Source: Planctomycetota bacterium | GTDB taxonomy: Bacteria; Planctomycetota; UBA1135 | Assembly (NCBI GenBank): GCA_029941685.1 | Contig: JAPYTC010000004.1 | Span: forward strand, 1-44,389 | Reading direction: 5' to 3' | DNA: 44,389 nucleotides | Shown: piece after piece, positions 3,945 through 34,292 of the stretch | Layout of the letters: every line of letters starts with the position of its first letter | Numbering within the stretch: the first letter of the stretch is position 1 | Made by a program: the position numbers and the translations under genes | Notes under the pieces: model-generated | What the model saw: the letters and a program-made list of their open reading frames with translations, nothing else | Databases searched by the model: none | Told to the model about the DNA's origin: nothing

Positions 3945-5407
3945 TGAAAAAAGTTATTCTTGCTATCGATCAAGGGACAACATCCTCACGGGTGATTCTT
4001 TTCGGATTTGACGGCGAAGTACTTAAAACTTTTCAGCGCGAGTTCGCGTGTAGCTATCCCAAGAGTGGTTGGGTTGAGCAAGATGCCAACCTAATTTGGG
4101 ATGACGTTTTTGAGTTGTGTACGGCTGCAATTGCTTATGCTAAAAAAGAGTCCTACACAATAGAATCGATTGGCATCGCCAACCAACGTGAGACAATTGT
4201 TTTTTTCGACAAAACCACTCAACGTGCCTTGGCGCCTTCAATCGTCTGGCAAGACCGACGGACTGCTGATATCTGCGATAAGTTAAATCGATCCGGCTAT
4301 GCAGATCTTGTTAAACAGCGCACCGGGCTAGTAATCGATCCGTATTTTTCGGCAACCAAAATTGCTTGGGGTATTCAAAACGATGACCTTGTTCGCCAAG
4401 CGTTATCCGCTAACAATTTATACGTCGGCACCATTGACAGCTGGTTACTCTACAAGCTAAGTGGCGGGAAAATGCACGCCACTGATTCGTCTAATGCATC
4501 ACGGACTATGTTGTTTGATATCGTGAAGCATCGATGGTGCGATGAATTACTAAGCCTGTTTGAAGTGCCGCGCGAAATACTGCCACAAGTCATGAACTCG
4601 ATTGACGATTACGGTAGCACCGCAGAAGGTTTATTCGACCTTTGTTTGCCGATTAGGGCGCTTATCGGCGACCAACAAGCTGCCACTATCGGGCAAGGAT
4701 GCCTGCATAAAGGAGACAGTAAATGCACTTTAGGCACGGGTGCTTTTGCCATGCAAAACATCGGCGATAGCTTCTCACCTAACGACAACGGATGGTTGAC
4801 GACGATCCTTTATAGTCAAAATTCGAGTATCGTTTACGCAACTGAAGGCAGCGTTTTTTCAAGCGGCAGCACCATGCAATGGCTACGCGACTCGCTAGGC
4901 ATCATTGACCAGACCAAAGACAGCGAAAAAATCGCTGCCTCCATCAGCAATACGGGTGGAGTCTATTTGGTGCCCGCTTTTAGTGGCCTAGCCGCGCCTC
5001 ATTGGCAAGCAAATGCGCGGGCGATGCTCGTCGGCATCAGCGGCCAGACCACAAAAAAAGAAATTATCCGCGCTGCACTCGAAGCGGTTAGTTACCAATG
5101 TAATGATTTGTTTGCCGGAGCCACGCCTGATGAATTAAAGGTTGATGGTGGCATGGCAGCGAATGACTGGTTGTTACAGCATCTTGCCGACATTCTGCAA
5201 TGTCGTGTTGTACGACCTTCCAATCTCGAGGTAACAGCATGGGGTGCGGCACGCTGTGCGGCATCGAGTCAAGGTTCATCGATAGATAGCAGCGACGTTA
5301 CAATGAGTGGCGAACAATTCATCCCAACGATGAACCCTGACGAGCGCCAGCAATTATTAGAGGGATGGCACGCTGCAGTTAATAGCTGCATTCAACTCAA
5401 TGCATAA
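3944..5407 (+). CDS. glpK: Glycerol kinase
   Basis: AIDQGTTSSR, NQRET, WQDRRT, DPYFSATK, GDQQAA and VDGG motifs of FGGY-family glycerol kinases. Confidence 0.93.
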   Translation: MKKVILAIDQGTTSSRVILFGFDGEVLKTFQREFACSYPKSGWVEQDANLIWDDVFELCTAAIAYAKKESYTIESIGIANQRETIVFFDKTTQRALAPSIVWQDRRTADICDKLNRSGYADLVKQRTGLVIDPYFSATKIAWGIQNDDLVRQALSANNLYVGTIDSWLLYKLSGGKMHATDSSNASRTMLFDIVKHRWCDELLSLFEVPREILPQVMNSIDDYGSTAEGLFDLCLPIRALIGDQQAATIGQGCLHKGDSKCTLGTGAFAMQNIGDSFSPNDNGWLTTILYSQNSSIVYATEGSVFSSGSTMQWLRDSLGIIDQTKDSEKIAASISNTGGVYLVPAFSGLAAPHWQANARAMLVGISGQTTKKEIIRAALEAVSYQCNDLFAGATPDELKVDGGMAANDWLLQHLADILQCRVVRPSNLEVTAWGAARCAASSQGSSIDSSDVTMSGEQFIPTMNPDERQQLLEGWHAAVNSCIQLNA

Positions 5408-7463
5408 GTCAATCCGTCCGCGTAATGCGTTATTGACCGCTATCAAACGTATTTGGTGGCTGATGGCAACCCTGTTGTTCATCATGAGTGGCTTTCGCTT
5501 TATTTTCGCTATTCAGTTTGCACACCCCGAGGTATTCACCGATTTCGTCAAAAACTTGCCGCCAGCATTTGCTTTCGGCGTCTTGCACGATCTACGCATT
5601 CTATTACTAATATCCCTTCCAACGACTCTATCATTGCTATGGATGCGACAGCGTTCTGCAAAGCGTTGGAGTGTTTGGCTATCCCGCACTACGCTTTACT
5701 GGACGTTCATTATTTCGTTCATCTTCATCGCTCTTGGTGCCGACCAAATTTACTATTCATACTTCCAAAGTCACTTTAATATTTTGGCATTTGGTGCCAT
5801 CGAAGACGACATTAGTGCGGTAATGATTAGTGCCTGGAAGACATACCCGCTAGTTCTTTACTTATTTATGATACTCGGCACAATGTATCTCCTTTATCGC
5901 GTGATACGCCGTGCCTTTCGCATCGCCAACTTTCTGCACATCGAAAAACAACCCGATGTAAAGAAAGTTGAAGTCTCGTTCAATTGGCACTTCAGTTCGC
6001 ATTTAATATGCACAATTTTACTTTGCTCAATTTCGCTCACCCCAGCATTTGTCGAACTAAATAGAAATTACCCGCAATCTAATTTCGTGCGAACAGTCAG
6101 TGAAAGCGGTGTAGAGAAACTCGCTGAAACCGTCTGGAATCGCCTCCAAGAAGACGACCTCACTACGGCTAACAATTTTGGCTATCCTAACCCCGAAAGT
6201 GCCCTCAACATCTTGTTTCCAGGATCTACTCTCGAAGGCGACACTTTGTTTGGCAAGATTCCATCTCAATATTTCAAACCTGTAATCCAAAGCGAAAGTA
6301 AGCCACACGTAGTTTTAGTGGTCATGGAAAGCTTCGCCACACACCTGCTGCGTTTCCAAAATGACGACTTCGATATACTCGGCCGTGCAAAGCAGCATTT
6401 TGAAAACGGTGTCCACTTCAAGCGATTTTTACCTGCCGACAACATTTCTGCTGGGAGCATTCTTGGATTATTCACCAACTTACCCTACCGACCGAACACT
6501 AAGCAACTGTCTCAAGGCACTAGCCAAGGCGCAACCTTCTTGACATCGTCGGCTTCGTTGTTTGCGGCACAGGGTTACGACACTGCTTTTTATTATGGAG
6601 GTGAAACAAATTGGCGTAATCTTGACCAGTTCTTGCCAATACAAAACTACAAAGAGTTAGTCGGCCAGCAAGAAATTGCCGAGCGCTACCATCTCGATCT
6701 CGAGAAAGATGCCGCACCATGGGGAGTATGGGATGAACATTTGTTCCGAGCAGTCGCCGACCGTTTAAAAGAAGCACAACGACCGACATTCATGGTGGTG
6801 TTTACTACGACTAACCATCCGCCAAACCAACTGCCCCCTGATAACAATTTACCTAGCTTAAACCCGAGTGAACTTTTCTTGCAGCTTGCCACTTCCGATC
6901 ACAACCTAAGCTCCACCCAAAAGCAACAATTACTAACGTACCAATACTCCAACCATCAGCTTGGCATCTTTCTAGACGACCTAGAAGCGAGTGGCGTATT
7001 GGAGAACTCCGTGATTGGCATTACCGGCGATCACACTGCTGGCATGGGCATCCCGTTTGCACAAAGTGAATTGATATTAAAGCGCGCCGTTCCATTTGTA
7101 TTGTTAACGCCAACATCAATCAGCAACCAATACACCGCTGACCCACTGACCCCGGGCAGCCACAAAGATATCATCCCGACTTTATTTCACGCTGCTGGCC
7201 TTGCAGACAAAGGATACAAAGGGCTAGGCACAAGCATGCTCGACAACAGTATTTATCATTTTGGATGCAATGCTGATGGCTTCGTCATCCATAGTAGCGG
7301 CCTAGCCAATATCCGTAAAAAGGGCTTTGACAGCTATAAATGGGTGCCGGGCGAGACATTGATATCCACTGAATCAGACAGCGAAAATGCCGAAATAGCT
7401 GTAAATCGCTATAAGGCACTAGTTTCCCTTTGTGATTGGCTAATTTTTTCATTTTCTGAATAA
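5400..7463 (+). CDS. LTA synthase/phosphoglycerol transferase (LtaS/OpgB-like) membrane protein
   Basis: About 5 N-terminal TM helices, then a sulfatase-like domain with VVMESF, WGVWDE, TTTNHPP and TGDH. Confidence 0.85.
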   Translation: MHKSIRPRNALLTAIKRIWWLMATLLFIMSGFRFIFAIQFAHPEVFTDFVKNLPPAFAFGVLHDLRILLLISLPTTLSLLWMRQRSAKRWSVWLSRTTLYWTFIISFIFIALGADQIYYSYFQSHFNILAFGAIEDDISAVMISAWKTYPLVLYLFMILGTMYLLYRVIRRAFRIANFLHIEKQPDVKKVEVSFNWHFSSHLICTILLCSISLTPAFVELNRNYPQSNFVRTVSESGVEKLAETVWNRLQEDDLTTANNFGYPNPESALNILFPGSTLEGDTLFGKIPSQYFKPVIQSESKPHVVLVVMESFATHLLRFQNDDFDILGRAKQHFENGVHFKRFLPADNISAGSILGLFTNLPYRPNTKQLSQGTSQGATFLTSSASLFAAQGYDTAFYYGGETNWRNLDQFLPIQNYKELVGQQEIAERYHLDLEKDAAPWGVWDEHLFRAVADRLKEAQRPTFMVVFTTTNHPPNQLPPDNNLPSLNPSELFLQLATSDHNLSSTQKQQLLTYQYSNHQLGIFLDDLEASGVLENSVIGITGDHTAGMGIPFAQSELILKRAVPFVLLTPTSISNQYTADPLTPGSHKDIIPTLFHAAGLADKGYKGLGTSMLDNSIYHFGCNADGFVIHSSGLANIRKKGFDSYKWVPGETLISTESDSENAEIAVNRYKALVSLCDWLIFSFSE

Positions 7464-7515
7464 TTATTAGCATAATTGAGTTACCATAAGGCTATACCAG
7501 AAATAGGTAATACCA

Positions 7516-8550
7516 ATGAAACAAATACTAAGCATAACATTAGCTTTCGTCGGCATAGCTGTTTTCAGCTCTCCGGCATTTGGCGCGCTTCAATGATGAG
7601 GCGGCGGCGGCCCTCGCGGCGGCGCTGGTTACTCGGGTCCGGGTGACACATCAAATCCAGGAGGCGCAGGCCCTGCTGCTCCATCTACTCCTACCGGTGG
7701 CGGCGCTCCAGGCGCGCCTCCAACACCAGGTGGTGGCGCAGGTCCAATGACCCCCGCAGGTGGTGGCGCAGCAATGCCATTACCGCCGCACGGTCAAACG
7801 GCTAAAGATGTCATGAAGCTAAAGTGGGATTTTCCTACTCATAACATCTACAAGCGCGAAGAGGCCAAAGGTGCCAACGCAACTATTGCAACAAAAATAG
7901 AAGCTGCTCTTCCAGAGCAAGAAGCTTACTACACAATTGCAGGCGACGATCGCCGCCCGTTGCTAGTGCTTCGCGAATGTTTGTTATGTAACGGCACTGA
8001 TGACGCGTTACTTTCAAGTTATGAAAACAATGAAGCCGTCTTGATAGTTACTCGTTGGTTCCATTGCGTTAAGTTGCCTACAGACATTCTTAACGACGAG
8101 CATTCATTCCATACTTTGTTCGAGGGTGACCACCCGCCGCACTTATTCGTGTCGCGCTGGGATGGCAGTAATCCAATTGCATTGCGCGGAGATTTGTCTC
8201 GTAGCGAATTGTTGGGCAACATGTACGCAACCTTGAAGGCGGAATACAAAAAAGACGCAAAAAAGGCGGGCAAGGAAATAACTAAGCTCATGTATGTTTA
8301 CGACATGCTTGATGAAAAGATTCAACGTCTTGAAATCACAATCGACGACGAGCTAGAAAAACGTGGTCCTAAGTCTAAAAAGCTTAAGAAGTACCGCAGG
8401 CAGCTCGAAGACGCACAAAAAGCAATGGCAGCAGCTAAAGAAAAGGAAGCCGTGCTTTCTAACCTTCAGCTAAGGAACCCTGACGAAGCGCCAAACGCAC
8501 TAGAAGAACTTCTAGAGTCGCGCAAAAACGGCCTACCGGCTGGTCAGTAA
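7516..8550 (+). CDS. Secreted CxxC protein with a Gly/Pro linker; contains in-frame TGA-TGA at codons 27-28 (candidate Sec-Sec); the ORF track shows only 7747-8550
   Basis: ATG 7516 with AGGT 7 nt upstream encodes MKQILSITLAFVGIAVFSSPAFGALQ, then TGA TGA (7594-7599), then the open frame GGGGPRGGAGYSGPGDTSNPGG..., continuous with ORF 7747. ECLLC lies at about 7975-7989. The C-terminus looks coiled-coil. Confidence 0.7.
7628..7647 (+). promoter_or_regulatory. Candidate bacterial SECIS hairpin
   Basis: GTTACTCG-GGTC-CGGGTGAC: 8-bp stem with 2 GU pairs and a GGUC loop starting 36 nt after the second TGA. Confidence 0.5.
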
Positions 8551-8568: not shown

Positions 8569-9807
8569 ATGACTCGTCACTCCCTAATTGTACGTCTCTC
8601 TCTTTCGTGCCTAGCATTAGTCCTATGCACTTCATTTGTTAGTGCACAAAAGAGTAAAGACGACGACAAAGACAATAAATATAAAGAAGACCCATACACC
8701 GAAAATGTCGAAGATGTATGGCGTGCTGCTGGCTACGAAGTCATGGGAGATTTTGCTTGGGCCGATGGCCATGGTTCTATCAACATCGAAGATGCAGTTG
8801 GCGAAGAGCACCTAATCTTCATCGAGACAAAGCACTTCAAAATTGGCTGCTGCTTGCCAAATTACAAGATTTCTCGCGAAGACAAGATCGAGAAGAAAAA
8901 AATTGAAGACGAACTCAATGAGCTGCGTGAGATCATCCCCAATATTCCTAGACGAGTAAAGGTACTCGACAAATGGTTACGCTTGCACCTATTTGCGATG
9001 CGCGCCGAAAAACTTTACGCAAACATCCAAAGCATTCTGCAGATTAGCGACGACGACTTCCCTACCGGGCCTGGCCAATTAAAAGATGGCAAGTATATGG
9101 GCGAAGGTCCTTATCTAGGCATGAAGTCTAAATTTACTCTTTTGTTCTTTGATAAAGAAAGTAGCATCGGTCGATACCGTACTGCTTTTATGGGACAAAC
9201 TGGTATTGTGCCTATTCGTCATTTGTTCCCGAATGATGACACTCTGCTATATGCATGTGCCGCGCAAAATGATGGTCTTGCTTCTGACACGACCATGCAC
9301 TGCGCGATGGTTTACGCAGTGACGCAAAATCTACTTAATGGTTTCCGCCATTACAGTCATGCGATGCCAGTTTGGTTGCCGTTAGGCCTCGCGCACTCGC
9401 TGGCGCGTGATATTGACCAAAAGCGGAATTACTTTACCGACAAACGCCTCTATGACTCAGAAGACAAGAATATCTGGAAATGGGACACCAAAACGCGCAA
9501 GCGGGTCGACTACGACATTGCAGTAACTTATGATGAAATGACCACGTGGAGAAATTCTTCCGCACTGGCTTACAATGACCACGTTATGGCTTGGGCGAAG
9601 GTTGACTACCTGTTAAATGAGCACCCTGACTGGGTTGCACAGTGGCTGTACCGCATGCAAGACAGCTATGCCGGAACACTTGCCCCCTCACCAGAGCAGC
9701 AAGCAACGCGCGATAAAGAACTCGTAGCAGAAATTTTTGTCTTCGACCAAGGTGATTTCGAATCGAATTGGCAAAAATGGGTTAAAAAGAATTATAAGAA
9801 AAAATAG
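8569..9807 (+). CDS. Secreted hypothetical protein
   Basis: Signal peptide ending VSA-Q; 412-aa ORF 18 nt after the previous gene, with AGGG just upstream. Confidence 0.8.
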   Translation: MTRHSLIVRLSLSCLALVLCTSFVSAQKSKDDDKDNKYKEDPYTENVEDVWRAAGYEVMGDFAWADGHGSINIEDAVGEEHLIFIETKHFKIGCCLPNYKISREDKIEKKKIEDELNELREIIPNIPRRVKVLDKWLRLHLFAMRAEKLYANIQSILQISDDDFPTGPGQLKDGKYMGEGPYLGMKSKFTLLFFDKESSIGRYRTAFMGQTGIVPIRHLFPNDDTLLYACAAQNDGLASDTTMHCAMVYAVTQNLLNGFRHYSHAMPVWLPLGLAHSLARDIDQKRNYFTDKRLYDSEDKNIWKWDTKTRKRVDYDIAVTYDEMTTWRNSSALAYNDHVMAWAKVDYLLNEHPDWVAQWLYRMQDSYAGTLAPSPEQQATRDKELVAEIFVFDQGDFESNWQKWVKKNYKKK

Positions 9808-32207: not shown

Positions 32208-34292
32208 ATGATGAACCGCTTCGTCCTTAGTCTCACACGATCTGTTTGCCTTAAGCAAATAACCCTACTATTGTTTTTTGCAATTTCTTCGGTGTCTATT
32301 TCGGCACAGCAAGAAGTTACCCACAATAAAATTGATACCAAAGGCCCATTCGAGTATTTACTAGAGCCTGAAGTTGGCCCAGGAACATTCGATTTCATCG
32401 ACGAAGGCGCCGGAACTGTAGTGGGTGTCCTTGGCGCAGTAATGTTTTACGACCTCGGTGCTGATTACTACGATTTCGAAAAAAGTATCTCATCATCAGG
32501 CACAACAGCGGCCGAACTCGCTGCGATAGTTGACCGCATCAATAAGCTAAATGGCAAGGATGCCACAAGCGTTGATTACGACTTAATGTGGCCACTGATT
32601 GAAGAGCTACGCAACACGGCACAAGCTAGTTTTGCTGCATCAAAGGATACTATCCATGAACTGCTTCAAGAATGCGCAGCAGAGGCAGACTTCACTCTAG
32701 AAGAAGCGGTCGAACTAACTCTAACCATACCCACTGGGTTTGCGATTGGCAGCATCAACCTTGACTCAGACGAGTTAAAGAGCAAAACGACAAACGATCT
32801 GCAAAACATTTTTGCCAAAGCCGTAAACGAAATCGTTGAAGGGGAAAAGCTCAAGCTCAGCATAAAGTTTTCGGACGACGCGGATACCGCCACGCTTAAG
32901 GTAACCAGACACGGTGTACCCATTGTGGTGTTATGGTTAGTGCTCGGCGCCATCTTCTTCACCTTCCGCATGGGTTTCATTAACCTGCGTGGCCTAGGGC
33001 ACTCAATAAAAGTTGTAAGCGGCCGCTTTACCAACCCTAACTCACACGGCATTGGCGAAGTCACCCACTTCCAAGCACTAGCATCAGCGTTATCGGCAAC
33101 GGTAGGACTCGGTAACATCGCTGGCGTTGCAATTGCGGTTTCAATGGGCGGGCCCGGTGCAATCTTTTGGATGGTGGTGGCCGGATTCCTCGGCATGTCG
33201 TCCAAATTCGTTGAATGTACTTTGGGTCAAAAATACCGCGAAGTACGGCCAAACGGTGAAGTGATGGGTGGTGCGATGTTCTACCTATCCAAAGGCCTCA
33301 AAGAAATGAAGATGCCTATCTTGGGCAAAGTCCTAGCAGTCATGTTCGCGGTGCTTTGTATCGGTGGTTCTTTCGGCGGCGGCAATACCTTTCAGGTAAA
33401 TCAATCGCTAAATGCGATCCAAGAGACCGTGCCTTTCTTCGGCGAGCATCGCTGGGTTTACGGCTTAATCATGACTATCGTGGTAGGTGTGGTCATCATC
33501 GGCGGCATCAAACGTATCGCTTCGACCGCTGAAAAAATCGTGCCGGCCATGTGCGGAGTCTACGTTGCTGCGTGTTTAGCCGTGTTGTTCAACAATTTTG
33601 ATCAGATTCTGCCGGCATTCAGCACCATCTGGGATAGCGCCATTAACCCCGACGCCGCTTACGGTGGATTTATCGGCGTACTCGTCATGGGGTTCAAACG
33701 AGCGGCTTTCTCTAACGAAGCTGGCGTTGGTTCGGCCGCCATCGCGCACTCGGCAGCGAAAACGGATTACCCGGTTCGTGAAGGTATCGTGGCTTTGCTC
33801 GAACCATTCATTGACACGATTATTGTTTGTACGATGACCGGTTTGGTAATAGTCATTACTGGCGCTTACGACGCAACCACTATGGTTGACGGCGTCGCCG
33901 TTTATGCACCATACCTAACAGACGCAAACGGTGCCGGCTTAACCTCGCAAGCATTTGCTAGCCAATTCAGTTGGTTCCCAATGATTCTCGGTGTCGCCGT
34001 TGCTCTCTTCGCCTTCTCAACCATGATCTCATGGTCATACTACGGCGAACGGTGCTGGGCTTACCTCTTCGGTGACAACGCCTCGATGTCTTACAAGATT
34101 ACTTTCTTGACCTTCACGTTTTTAGGTTCGGTAATTACATCAAAAAATGTTTTGGACTTCGGCGACTTAATGATTCTCGGCATGGCTTTCCCCAACGTGT
34201 TAGGTGTCGTGTTGTTGTCCGGAAAAGTTAAACGCGATCTAAATACTTACTGGAAGCTCTTGAAATCAGGTGCCTTTAAAGAGTACAAATAA
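32208..34292 (+). CDS. Alanine/glycine:cation symporter (AGCS) with a signal-like N-terminus and a large loop insertion
   Basis: FQALASALSATVGLGNIAGVA, GGPGAIFWM, FSNEAGVGSA, EPFIDTIIVCTMT and FSTMISWSYYG motifs. Confidence 0.93.
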   Translation: MMNRFVLSLTRSVCLKQITLLLFFAISSVSISAQQEVTHNKIDTKGPFEYLLEPEVGPGTFDFIDEGAGTVVGVLGAVMFYDLGADYYDFEKSISSSGTTAAELAAIVDRINKLNGKDATSVDYDLMWPLIEELRNTAQASFAASKDTIHELLQECAAEADFTLEEAVELTLTIPTGFAIGSINLDSDELKSKTTNDLQNIFAKAVNEIVEGEKLKLSIKFSDDADTATLKVTRHGVPIVVLWLVLGAIFFTFRMGFINLRGLGHSIKVVSGRFTNPNSHGIGEVTHFQALASALSATVGLGNIAGVAIAVSMGGPGAIFWMVVAGFLGMSSKFVECTLGQKYREVRPNGEVMGGAMFYLSKGLKEMKMPILGKVLAVMFAVLCIGGSFGGGNTFQVNQSLNAIQETVPFFGEHRWVYGLIMTIVVGVVIIGGIKRIASTAEKIVPAMCGVYVAACLAVLFNNFDQILPAFSTIWDSAINPDAAYGGFIGVLVMGFKRAAFSNEAGVGSAAIAHSAAKTDYPVREGIVALLEPFIDTIIVCTMTGLVIVITGAYDATTMVDGVAVYAPYLTDANGAGLTSQAFASQFSWFPMILGVAVALFAFSTMISWSYYGERCWAYLFGDNASMSYKITFLTFTFLGSVITSKNVLDFGDLMILGMAFPNVLGVVLLSGKVKRDLNTYWKLLKSGAFKEYK

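Follow-up and report, generated by a model that had tools for sequence, protein, structure and literature searches.

Can two adjacent TGA codons, placed directly behind a signal peptide, be translated as two consecutive selenocysteine (Sec, U) residues in a bacterium? The question is raised by a locus on contig JAPYTC010000004.1 of a Planctomycetota bacterium (assembly GCA_029941685.1, lineage UBA1135), of which the whole stretch of 44,389 nucleotides was analysed and is referred to as the window. Direct reading of the sequence showed a gap of 283 bp between the end of an upstream open reading frame (ORF) at 7463 and an ATG at 7747. From an earlier ATG at 7516, a signal-peptide-like segment of 26 codons (MKQILSITLAFVGIAVFSSPAFG/ALQ) leads to TGA TGA at 7594–7599. 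The frame then continues through 49 stop-free, Gly/Pro-rich codons (7600–7746) in phase with 7747–8550 and closes with TAA at 8548–8550. A sequence-only reading made beforehand had held the gap to be coding, and the elements that it named (the ATG at 7516, an AGGT motif, the signal peptide, TGA TGA and the in-frame codons) were all found; the ratio of non-synonymous to synonymous substitution rates (dN/dS, below) supports the claim.

The analysis led to the conclusion that 7516–8550 is one gene for an exported selenoprotein, and neither a pseudogene nor an assembly error. That the gene is real and both UGAs encode Sec is predicted with a probability of about 80%; the narrower prediction, of translation through both codons with Sec at the first at least, is held with greater confidence still. 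By every computational criterion except the hairpin spacing of the first UGA, which in this genus lies just outside the usual range, the predicted product is a selenoprotein. The features of the gene are as follows, with the cleavage site placed by the −3/−1 rule for signal peptidase.

7505–7508, + strand: AGGT, a weak motif resembling a ribosome-binding site, 8 nt before the ATG (read directly)
7516–7584, + strand: start codon and Sec-type signal peptide MKQILSITLAFVGIAVFSSPAFG, with predicted cleavage after AFG
7585–7593, + strand: ALQ, the first mature residues (APQ in most orthologues)
7594–7599, + strand: TGA TGA, two adjacent predicted Sec codons (residues 27–28), from conservation, Sec/Cys alternation, the presence of Sec machinery and the use of TGA as a stop elsewhere
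7600–7788, + strand: low-complexity linker rich in Gly/Pro/Ala/Thr (residues 29–91), presumed from its composition to be a flexible tether
7804–8310, + strand: core domain of about 169 aa with RPLLVLRE-CxxC, WFHC and PPHLF (from alignments), probably of thioredoxin-like fold
8311–8550, + strand: Lys/Glu-rich C-terminal tail, helical or coiled-coil (weak coiled-coil matches in PDB and Pfam), and TAA

The AGGT motif carries little weight because it is not conserved in the orthologues.

Conservation of the two TGA codons

A homologue was present in 50 of the 61 related genomes searched. The frame upstream of the match was read in 30 loci, two of which were cut by a contig end. All 28 orthologues with an intact 5′ end carried a signal peptide, with n-region, h-region and an A-x-A-like site, followed by TGA at the equivalent place, in keeping with the earlier remark that two adjacent nonsense mutations in an otherwise intact gene would be unlikely. 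The next codon was TGA in nine of these, TGT or TGC in 17, CGG in one and GGC in one. The addition of 27 more distant homologues and paralogues gave 57 loci within one Planctomycetota order, 53 of them informative. TGA occupied the site in 46 of the 53 and the remaining seven were Cys only; ordinary residues in place of Sec or Cys, which would have spoken against the proposal, were thus not the pattern. The Sec forms comprised U-U (12 loci), U-C (26), C-U (2), U alone (3) and U-GPGG-C, that is U-x4-C (3). Inspection of the upstream frame, as the sequence-only reading had proposed, therefore yielded signal peptides followed by TGA-TGA, TGA-TGY, TGY-TGA or Cys alone.

A U-U form from another GTDB family was used to seed an independent scan, which gave a second clade of 20 named loci from metagenome-assembled genomes (MAGs), one of which was L046 of the first set. 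Nineteen read ‘...ARPAAPQ-U-U-...’ and one U-C, with TGA in 20/20. Among 42 long database representatives, most were full-length Cys forms with Q-C directly after an A-x-A signal-peptidase site. In a quick maximum-likelihood (ML) tree of 72 core domains, the U-U label needed six changes, at least three of which were forced by well-supported branches; a U-C form nested among U-U forms (L021, inside the U-U group), and a U-U form was sister to two C-U forms. Since TGA and Cys codons alternate at each of the two positions in close relatives, the locus bears the classical signature of Sec. On these comparisons, one Planctomycetota order contains at least three GTDB families in which the adjacent UGA-UGA persists.

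Two further regularities were seen at this site. Cys forms nearly always have a single N-terminal Cys (A-x-A/Q-C-x), and in 40 of the 46 Sec forms another Sec or a Cys stands next to the Sec. A Gln almost invariably precedes the reactive residue; in the Cys forms it would be the mature N-terminus and could cyclise to pyroglutamate.

Coding constraint extended across the TGA codons. In the comparison with L018, the most diverged congener, dN/dS was 0.075 at a dS of about 1.0 upstream of Met78 (signal peptide and linker) and 0.072 downstream of it. Met78, encoded by the ATG at 7747, is Ala in the congeners and GCG (Ala) in contigs assembled from RNA libraries, so the gene cannot start there; this ATG is strain-specific, and a start at 7747, which the sequence-only reading had named as a possible objection, was rejected. 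The sequence itself was supported by a DNA run from a study other than that of the best holder, with 0 differences over 7400–7696. RNA-library contigs of three studies spanned 7594–7599 unchanged; one contig covered 7515–8653, the RNA-contig cover of this stretch leaving out 7400–7487 and what lies beyond 8653. The sequencing runs with the gene were labelled hydrothermal-vent and marine; three others (X22–X24) contained almost none of the sampled words, which weighs neither for nor against. Relative to the window, all three RNA-library runs have contigs that lack one nucleotide at 8549 and carry one extra after 8568, in the short spacer separating the two genes; both frames are kept and this is a strain difference. 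A pseudogene or an assembly error was excluded by the conservation in orthologues, the identical independent DNA run and the dN/dS of 0.075.

Reassignment of UGA (codes 4 or 25) was ruled out, since TGA is a normal stop that terminates 116 of the 743 ORFs of at least 300 codons in the genome, including one gene in the window. A ‘tRNA-Pyl(CTA)’ called by ARAGORN at 33675–33751 was considered as possible evidence of recoding. It falls within a coding region (...FSNEAGVGSAAIAH..., which we take to be a sodium:alanine symporter motif), Rfam gave no tRNA there, and it was dismissed as a false positive and not a suppressor tRNA.

The source genome (2.0 Mb, 83% complete) holds the machinery for Sec. 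ARAGORN called tRNA-Sec (selC), and hits to selA, selB and selD were above curated cut-offs, with selD containing an in-frame TGA; the selABCD set on which the proposal depended is therefore present in full. Three more thioredoxin-like ORFs combined a signal peptide with a UxxC motif: DWUSWC, DYUGWC and SPUPPC (C41:103-390, C87:6226-6486 and C235:926-1171; L071, L074 and L076). Their hairpin loops (AGUU, GGUCU and CGUGUU) start 25–27 nt from the U of UGA, and the long hairpin of SelD bears a GUU loop at 36 nt. With the Sec-containing SelD, the genome carries at least five predicted selenoprotein genes. According to PMC4807772, the planctomycetes Gemmata obscuriglobus and Isosphaera pallida possess complete gene sets for Sec insertion.

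Candidate SECIS hairpins

Uninterrupted hairpins downstream of the first UGA were scanned and the most stable was taken, with a control scan anchored +66 nt. In 31 of 45 Sec forms, compared with 8 of 41 in the control, the best hairpin had a loop beginning 18–26 nt after the UGA, most often at 24 nt (15 loci) or 21 nt (8 loci). The loops of these proximal hairpins were GGU, GGUC, GUC, GUU, GUG or AGUU, and their stem sequences were unrelated between genera. Against a null in which the protein was kept and synonymous codons were resampled, the hairpin was stronger at p ≤ 0.05 in 22 of 46 Sec forms (about 2.3 expected; median p 0.054) and in none of the seven Cys forms (median p 1.0).

The spacing was alike in single and double forms. 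U-U forms outside the genus of the window had the loop 21, 24, 24, 24, 25, 27/28 and 28 nt from the first UGA, and the second clade, with an AGUU loop, mostly 24 nt; the single-Sec relatives used both 21 and 24 nt, one codon apart. The model of the bacterial Sec insertion sequence (bSECIS) in a May 2026 review (PMC13188914) specifies a loop of 3–9 nt, a stem of 4–16 bp, G in the first two loop positions, a spacing of 16–37 nt and a free energy of ≤ −7.5 kcal/mol. Most orthologues satisfy all of these criteria, with loops 21–25 nt from the U. MAFFT set the 21-nt GC-rich proximal hairpins out of register, and Rfam at the gathering threshold gave 0 matches in the window.

In the genus of the window, two structures follow the TGA codons.

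7628–7647, + strand: distal 8-bp hairpin GUUACUCG-GGUC-CGGGUGAC (DNA GTTACTCG-GGTC-CGGGTGAC) over the codons G-Y-S-G-P-G-D, the best SECIS candidate in the genus
7598–7634, + strand: imperfect GC-rich proximal structure with its loop about 20 nt from the first UGA (−15.4 kcal/mol, interrupted stem, UCGC loop), apparently a degenerate remnant of the usual SECIS position of the family

The distal hairpin (−8.6 kcal/mol) is the one that the sequence-only reading had described, and it lies where it was placed, with its loop starting 36 nt after the second UGA. The well-known SECIS of Escherichia coli fdhF also has a GGUC loop, at a spacing of 11 nt. As a proposed SECIS the distal hairpin held up within the genus, where it is constrained, and failed to generalise, as most of the family uses a different, proximal hairpin. 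Its spacing had been called near the upper end of the bacterial range: this is correct for the second UGA, inside 16–37 nt; the first UGA falls outside by 2 nt.

The constraint on the distal hairpin was seen in several ways. All 21 nt are identical in all five species of the genus, synonymous sites included, and the hairpin beat the synonymous-codon nulls with p = 0.004–0.048 in these five non-independent species. Local synonymous identity was 0.73–0.78 compared with 0.42 gene-wide. A hairpin of the distal type occurs at the canonical 24 nt in four short-linker orthologues, with compensatory changes from UCG/CGG to CAG/CUG. The residues beneath it (Y-x-GPGD) are also found in the Cys forms P0169, P0170, P0211 and P0254, and the idea that they are imposed only by the RNA was rejected; Y-x-GPGD is thus a motif at the protein level, and only some lineages would have tuned its codons into a hairpin. 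From this pattern, the constrained SECIS-like element in the genus is predicted to be the distal GGUC hairpin, under selection at the RNA level.

At the proximal position, the synonymous-codon null gave p = 0.41 and 0.70 in the congeners L016 and L017, compared with 0.065 and 0.017 for the remaining pair of congeners; a CCCC-CGYG-GGGG hairpin is retained there by L015 and L018. Drift of the codons at this position is uncompensated: they read CCT CGC GGC GGC in the window and CCC CGT GGG GGT in a congener. In the minimum free energy (MFE) fold of 7594–7653, UGAUG, from the two Sec codons, is paired with a CAUCA immediately 3′ of the distal hairpin and thereby encloses both hairpins. CAUCA is kept in all five congeners and not in other U-U genera.

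Protein family, core domain and partner

The window protein (P0001) matched no Pfam or NCBIfam family and had no sequence or profile match in PDB. An exhaustive profile search gave a compact family of 268 clusters at 50% identity, 195 of them at E ≤ 1e-10; among the best 150 of the 268 hits only the family itself was found, and no bridge to a known fold. The named relatives are all ‘hypothetical protein’ from Planctomycetota MAGs, with a few records labelled otherwise, and the public gene calls seen for the family all start after the TGA. By these searches it is a previously undescribed family of predicted selenoproteins, restricted as far as searched to Planctomycetota.

Members share a signal peptide, a reactive Cys or Sec at mature position 2–5, a linker of 60–100 residues of Gly/Pro/Ser/Thr, a core of about 170 residues and a Lys/Glu tail. 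The core motifs in alignments A1 and A2 are RPLLVLRE-CxxC-NGTDDALLS, WFHC and PPHLF; the CxxC of the window protein is ECLLC (residues 154–158, Cys codons 7978–7980 and 7987–7989). An hhalign comparison of A2 with an alignment of Thioredoxin_7 from related genomes gave a probability of 32.5% (E = 4.7e-4, 105 columns), with CxxC on the thioredoxin CxxC and PPH on the cis-Pro loop. The ESM Atlas pointed to thioredoxin-like clusters at 0.79–0.82, which is a lead only, and no Pfam family other than coiled-coil ones recurred in 38 members. The core domain is likely to have a thioredoxin-like fold, judging from the register of these motifs.

The most diverged members (L064, L067, L068 and L069) have lost the second or both Cys of CxxC, and three of them keep the N-terminal Sec. 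The N-terminal reactive residue is more conserved than CxxC. A lipobox has Cys at +1, directly after the cleavage site. This arrangement was not found here, since Gln always intervenes (A-x-A/Q-C; A-x-A/A-P-Q-U).

Two neighbouring genes on the same strand are associated with the selenoprotein gene.

8569–9807, + strand: partner gene of 412 aa with a signal peptide and the block ‘DT.MHC...LP.W..EGLAH’, 19 nt after the selenoprotein gene and conserved
5400–7463, + strand: membrane protein of the LtaS/sulfatase family (Pfam Sulfatase, 3.8e-26; matches to LtaS-like NCBIfam models far below cut-off)

The partner lies adjacent downstream on the same strand in 41 of the 57 loci, and upstream of paralogues in nine, which form arrays. 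Searches of Pfam, NCBIfam and PDB gave no match for it, apart from one member out of 16 that just reaches Peptidase_MA_2 (E = 0.016); His244 and His276 are invariant in alignment A3. MA peptidases carry the motif HExxH. From its alignment, the partner looks like a degenerate metalloprotease core of the MA clan with Cys in place of the catalytic Glu. The LtaS/sulfatase gene is upstream in 10 of the 57 loci and is linked to the pair in closer genera; no pathway emerged from the rest of the gene neighbourhood. Some genomes carry tandem arrays of partner, Sec or Cys gene and partner (L044/L023, G009:C39; L027/L056, G026:C69; L020). In these a U-U or U copy adjoins a Cys-only paralogue with a poly-Pro linker, the pair in G009 being a U-U copy and a Q-C form, so that Sec and Cys versions coexist in one genome.

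Proposed mechanism, alternatives and relation to known systems

The mature protein would begin with A-L-Q-Sec-Sec after removal of the signal peptide. Its predicted N-terminal tryptic peptide reads A-L/P-Q-U-U-G-G-G-G-P-R in this genus, other forms being A-P-Q-U-C-P... and A-P-Q-U-U-S-G-G-G-G-S-S-W-A-P-R. Both UGAs would be read as Sec by SelB and tRNA-Sec, with a hairpin inside the coding sequence as guide. For most of the family this would be the (G)GU-type loop 21 or 24 nt after the UGA, two positions that are one codon apart. As a hairpin 24 nt from the first UGA lies 21 nt from the second, and either distance occurs in the family, one hairpin may serve two adjacent UGAs. In the genus of the window, the proximal hairpin appears to have decayed and the distal GGUC hairpin to be constrained instead. 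We favour, with less assurance than the Sec assignment itself, a single in-ORF SECIS that directs SelB to insert Sec at each of the adjacent UGAs in turn, the hairpin being 3 nt nearer the ribosome at the second; the scatter between 21 and 24 nt in the family would make the doubling possible, and the result would be an encoded vicinal diselenide on a long N-terminal tether.

The two selenols could form this diselenide, or a selenenylsulfide in the U-C forms, at the end of a flexible Gly/Pro tether of about 60 residues. The pair might then exchange redox equivalents in the cell envelope with the secreted 412-aa partner or the CxxC of the probably thioredoxin-like core, and the adjacent Sec or Cys could park the selenol as an intramolecular Se–S or Se–Se bond in an oxidising compartment. 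This function as a redox arm is put forward tentatively, at somewhat less than even odds.

Several observations weigh against the interpretation as a whole. Selenium insertion at both codons is a prediction from sequence. The first UGA is 39 nt from the distal loop, beyond the published range, and a 6-nt insertion in the congener L016 puts the hairpin 42 and 45 nt from the UGAs. The window's own gene is without the family-typical proximal hairpin (p = 0.75 against the synonymous-codon null), the whole 77-nt region folds no better than dinucleotide shuffles (z = +1.08), and three other stretches of the gene reach a synonymous identity of 0.75–0.8. Kinship inflates all of the locus counts, the five species of the genus not being independent, and the RNA-library contigs do not prove transcription, as DNA can occur in such libraries. 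For the fold, hhalign of A1 with the single sequence of an in-genome thioredoxin selenoprotein gave 0.3% and the match to Thioredoxin_7 reached 32.5%, with no Pfam hit in the 38 members. A strict relay from arm to CxxC is weakened by 4 of 34 aligned members, in which the N-terminal Sec or Cys persists although the second Cys of CxxC has gone. Nor does too simple a relay sit well with the contrast between Cys forms, usually with a lone N-terminal Cys, and Sec forms, of which 40 of 46 have a Sec or Cys beside the Sec.

Of the other ways to read the locus, a pseudogene, an assembly error, two genes (a leader peptide and a gene from 7747) or a reassigned UGA would agree with the gene callers of every public source, which start the protein after the TGAs. 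The TGA in 46/53 loci, the constraint upstream and the absence of Met78 from congeners contradict the pseudogene and two-gene versions, and the identical DNA run, the 116/743 ORFs ending in TGA and the Sec machinery contradict the others; this group retains almost no credibility. A second possibility is that only the first UGA is Sec, the second being read through by a near-cognate Trp or Cys tRNA or mostly terminating, to give Sec-X or a 27-residue abortive peptide and little full-length protein. The hairpin spacing in the genus, at or beyond the edge of the published range, would suit this, as would the lack of a bacterial precedent for adjacent-UGA decoding in the literature searched, which was available in part. 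In close relatives, however, the second TGA gives way specifically to Cys codons (as in L021 within a U-U group), and it is kept in 12/53 and 19/20 loci across three GTDB families, and purifying selection is equal downstream and upstream. Frequent termination would make the 317 conserved downstream codons pointless, and the proposal is improbable. In the genus of the window, the functional SECIS could instead be the imperfect proximal GC-rich structure or a larger composite fold, with the distal hairpin a by-product of the Y-S-G-P-G-D codons. The proximal position of SECIS-like hairpins across the family, the Y-x-GPGD motif in Cys forms and the L016 insertion, which shifts the distal hairpin without apparent harm, are in line with a proximal SECIS, and the pairing of UGAUG with CAUCA around both hairpins with a composite fold. 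Set against the proximal SECIS are the uncompensated drift of its codons, the p values of 0.75, 0.41 and 0.70 in L014, L016 and L017, the specific synonymous choices that the distal hairpin needs and that are identical in all five species, the GGUC loop, which fits the published loop rule as the proximal UCGC does not, and the SelD of the same genome, which uses a loop at 36 nt. The distal hairpin is preferred, and a proximal or composite element carries about a quarter of the weight.

With regard to function, the main rival to the redox arm is that the N-terminal Sec-Sec or Sec-Cys is a hook for a soft metal or metalloid (Cu(I), Hg, As or Se) that passes cargo to or from the partner bearing His and Cys. 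Vicinal CU/UC motifs do occur in metal-handling selenoproteins (MerB-like SaoL, HgcA, MbdU and CopZ-like; PMC13188914), the partner has the invariant His244 and His276 and the conserved ‘MHC’ block, some members with the N-terminal Sec or Cys can do without the second Cys of CxxC, and the runs with the gene came from hydrothermal-vent and marine samples by their labels. Nevertheless, Pfam and NCBIfam searches of both proteins detected no metal-binding domain, most members keep CxxC in register with the thioredoxin active site, and no metal transporter or resistance gene lies nearby. A metal hook is accordingly rated unlikely, at about half the weight given to the redox arm.

Comparison with described selenoproteins was made against the 119 prokaryotic families tabulated in PMC13188914. 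A scan with the Pfam and NCBIfam models of these families, which left aside those with cd or PTHR models only, gave no match to the window protein, and Table 1 of the review, in the part available, has no ‘UU’ motif among the 119 families, in which multiple Sec occur as UxxU, UxxxxU or in separate domains. No adjacent Sec-Sec from a bacterium and no description of the family was found in the literature searched; the supplementary tables of PMC4807772 and PMC12013277 and BSepDB, outside the search, could list it. The string ‘Planctomycet’ had 0 occurrences in the available portions of PMC13188914, PMC13326102, PMC12013277 and PMC2398784. The only printed Sec-Sec found, in sources that were partly available, was that of the algal PDI_e selenoprotein GUGUU (PMC7539508, 2020), called there the first selenoprotein with two consecutive Sec. 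It resembles the window protein in the consecutive Sec-Sec and the thioredoxin-fold context. Compared by description only, it differs in being eukaryotic, with a SECIS in the 3′ untranslated region (3′-UTR) free of spacing constraint, and in having its Sec in the active-site region and not at the mature N-terminus. Bacterial multi-Sec proteins (UxxU Prx-like and metal-binding proteins, UxxxxU TsoB and double-domain fusions; PMC13188914) likewise acquire two or three Sec through an in-ORF SECIS, but these are at least two residues apart or in separate domains.

Periplasmic UxxC thioredoxin-like selenoproteins, including the three in this genome, share with the window protein the signal peptide, the probable thioredoxin-like fold, SelB-dependent decoding and a (G)GU-loop hairpin about 25 nt downstream. 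In these, Sec replaces the first Cys of CxxC, whereas the window protein keeps Cys-Cys and has its predicted Sec about 125 residues away at the mature N-terminus. Mammalian thioredoxin reductase carries a C-terminal Gly-Cys-Sec-Gly arm (the GCUG mechanism), to which the sequence-only reading had likened the locus. Both have an adjacent chalcogen pair at a terminus, presumably flexible, which could form an Se–S or Se–Se bond in an eight-membered ring and shuttle electrons. Here, however, the arm is N-terminal instead of C-terminal, the tether has about 60–100 residues, and the protein is exported and bacterial with its SECIS inside the ORF. No Pfam domain of FAD/NADPH pyridine-nucleotide-disulfide oxidoreductases was present in the window protein or the family members scanned. 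It is thus not a member of the thioredoxin reductases, as the flavoprotein domains are absent, and the analogy is functional only.

Sec insertion in bacteria is taught as one UGA read by way of one closely spaced hairpin. On the present comparisons, the locus represents a new family and a new predicted variant of bacterial Sec decoding. If true, double insertion from a single SECIS would give the first natural bacterial Sec-Sec, in a new extracytoplasmic selenoprotein family with its own conserved partner. UGA-UGA kept in dozens of genomes would be a natural test of how much spacing SelB and the ribosome tolerate, of the reloading of SelB on one hairpin after a 3-nt translocation and of the avoidance of termination twice running. 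A vicinal diselenide that is genetically encoded and carried in the cell envelope by a flexible N-terminal tether would be a type of redox or metal centre not described in the sources searched, and a compact natural Sec-Sec cassette could serve selenoprotein engineering.

Since the public gene calls seen start after the TGA and are named ‘hypothetical protein’, the selenoproteomes of marine Planctomycetota would be undercounted and the family would be absent from current lists. Near-identical copies were also seen on short contigs of MAGs labelled Luminiphilus, Brocadiaceae and Myxococcota (L081, L082; P0007), which are probably mis-binned.

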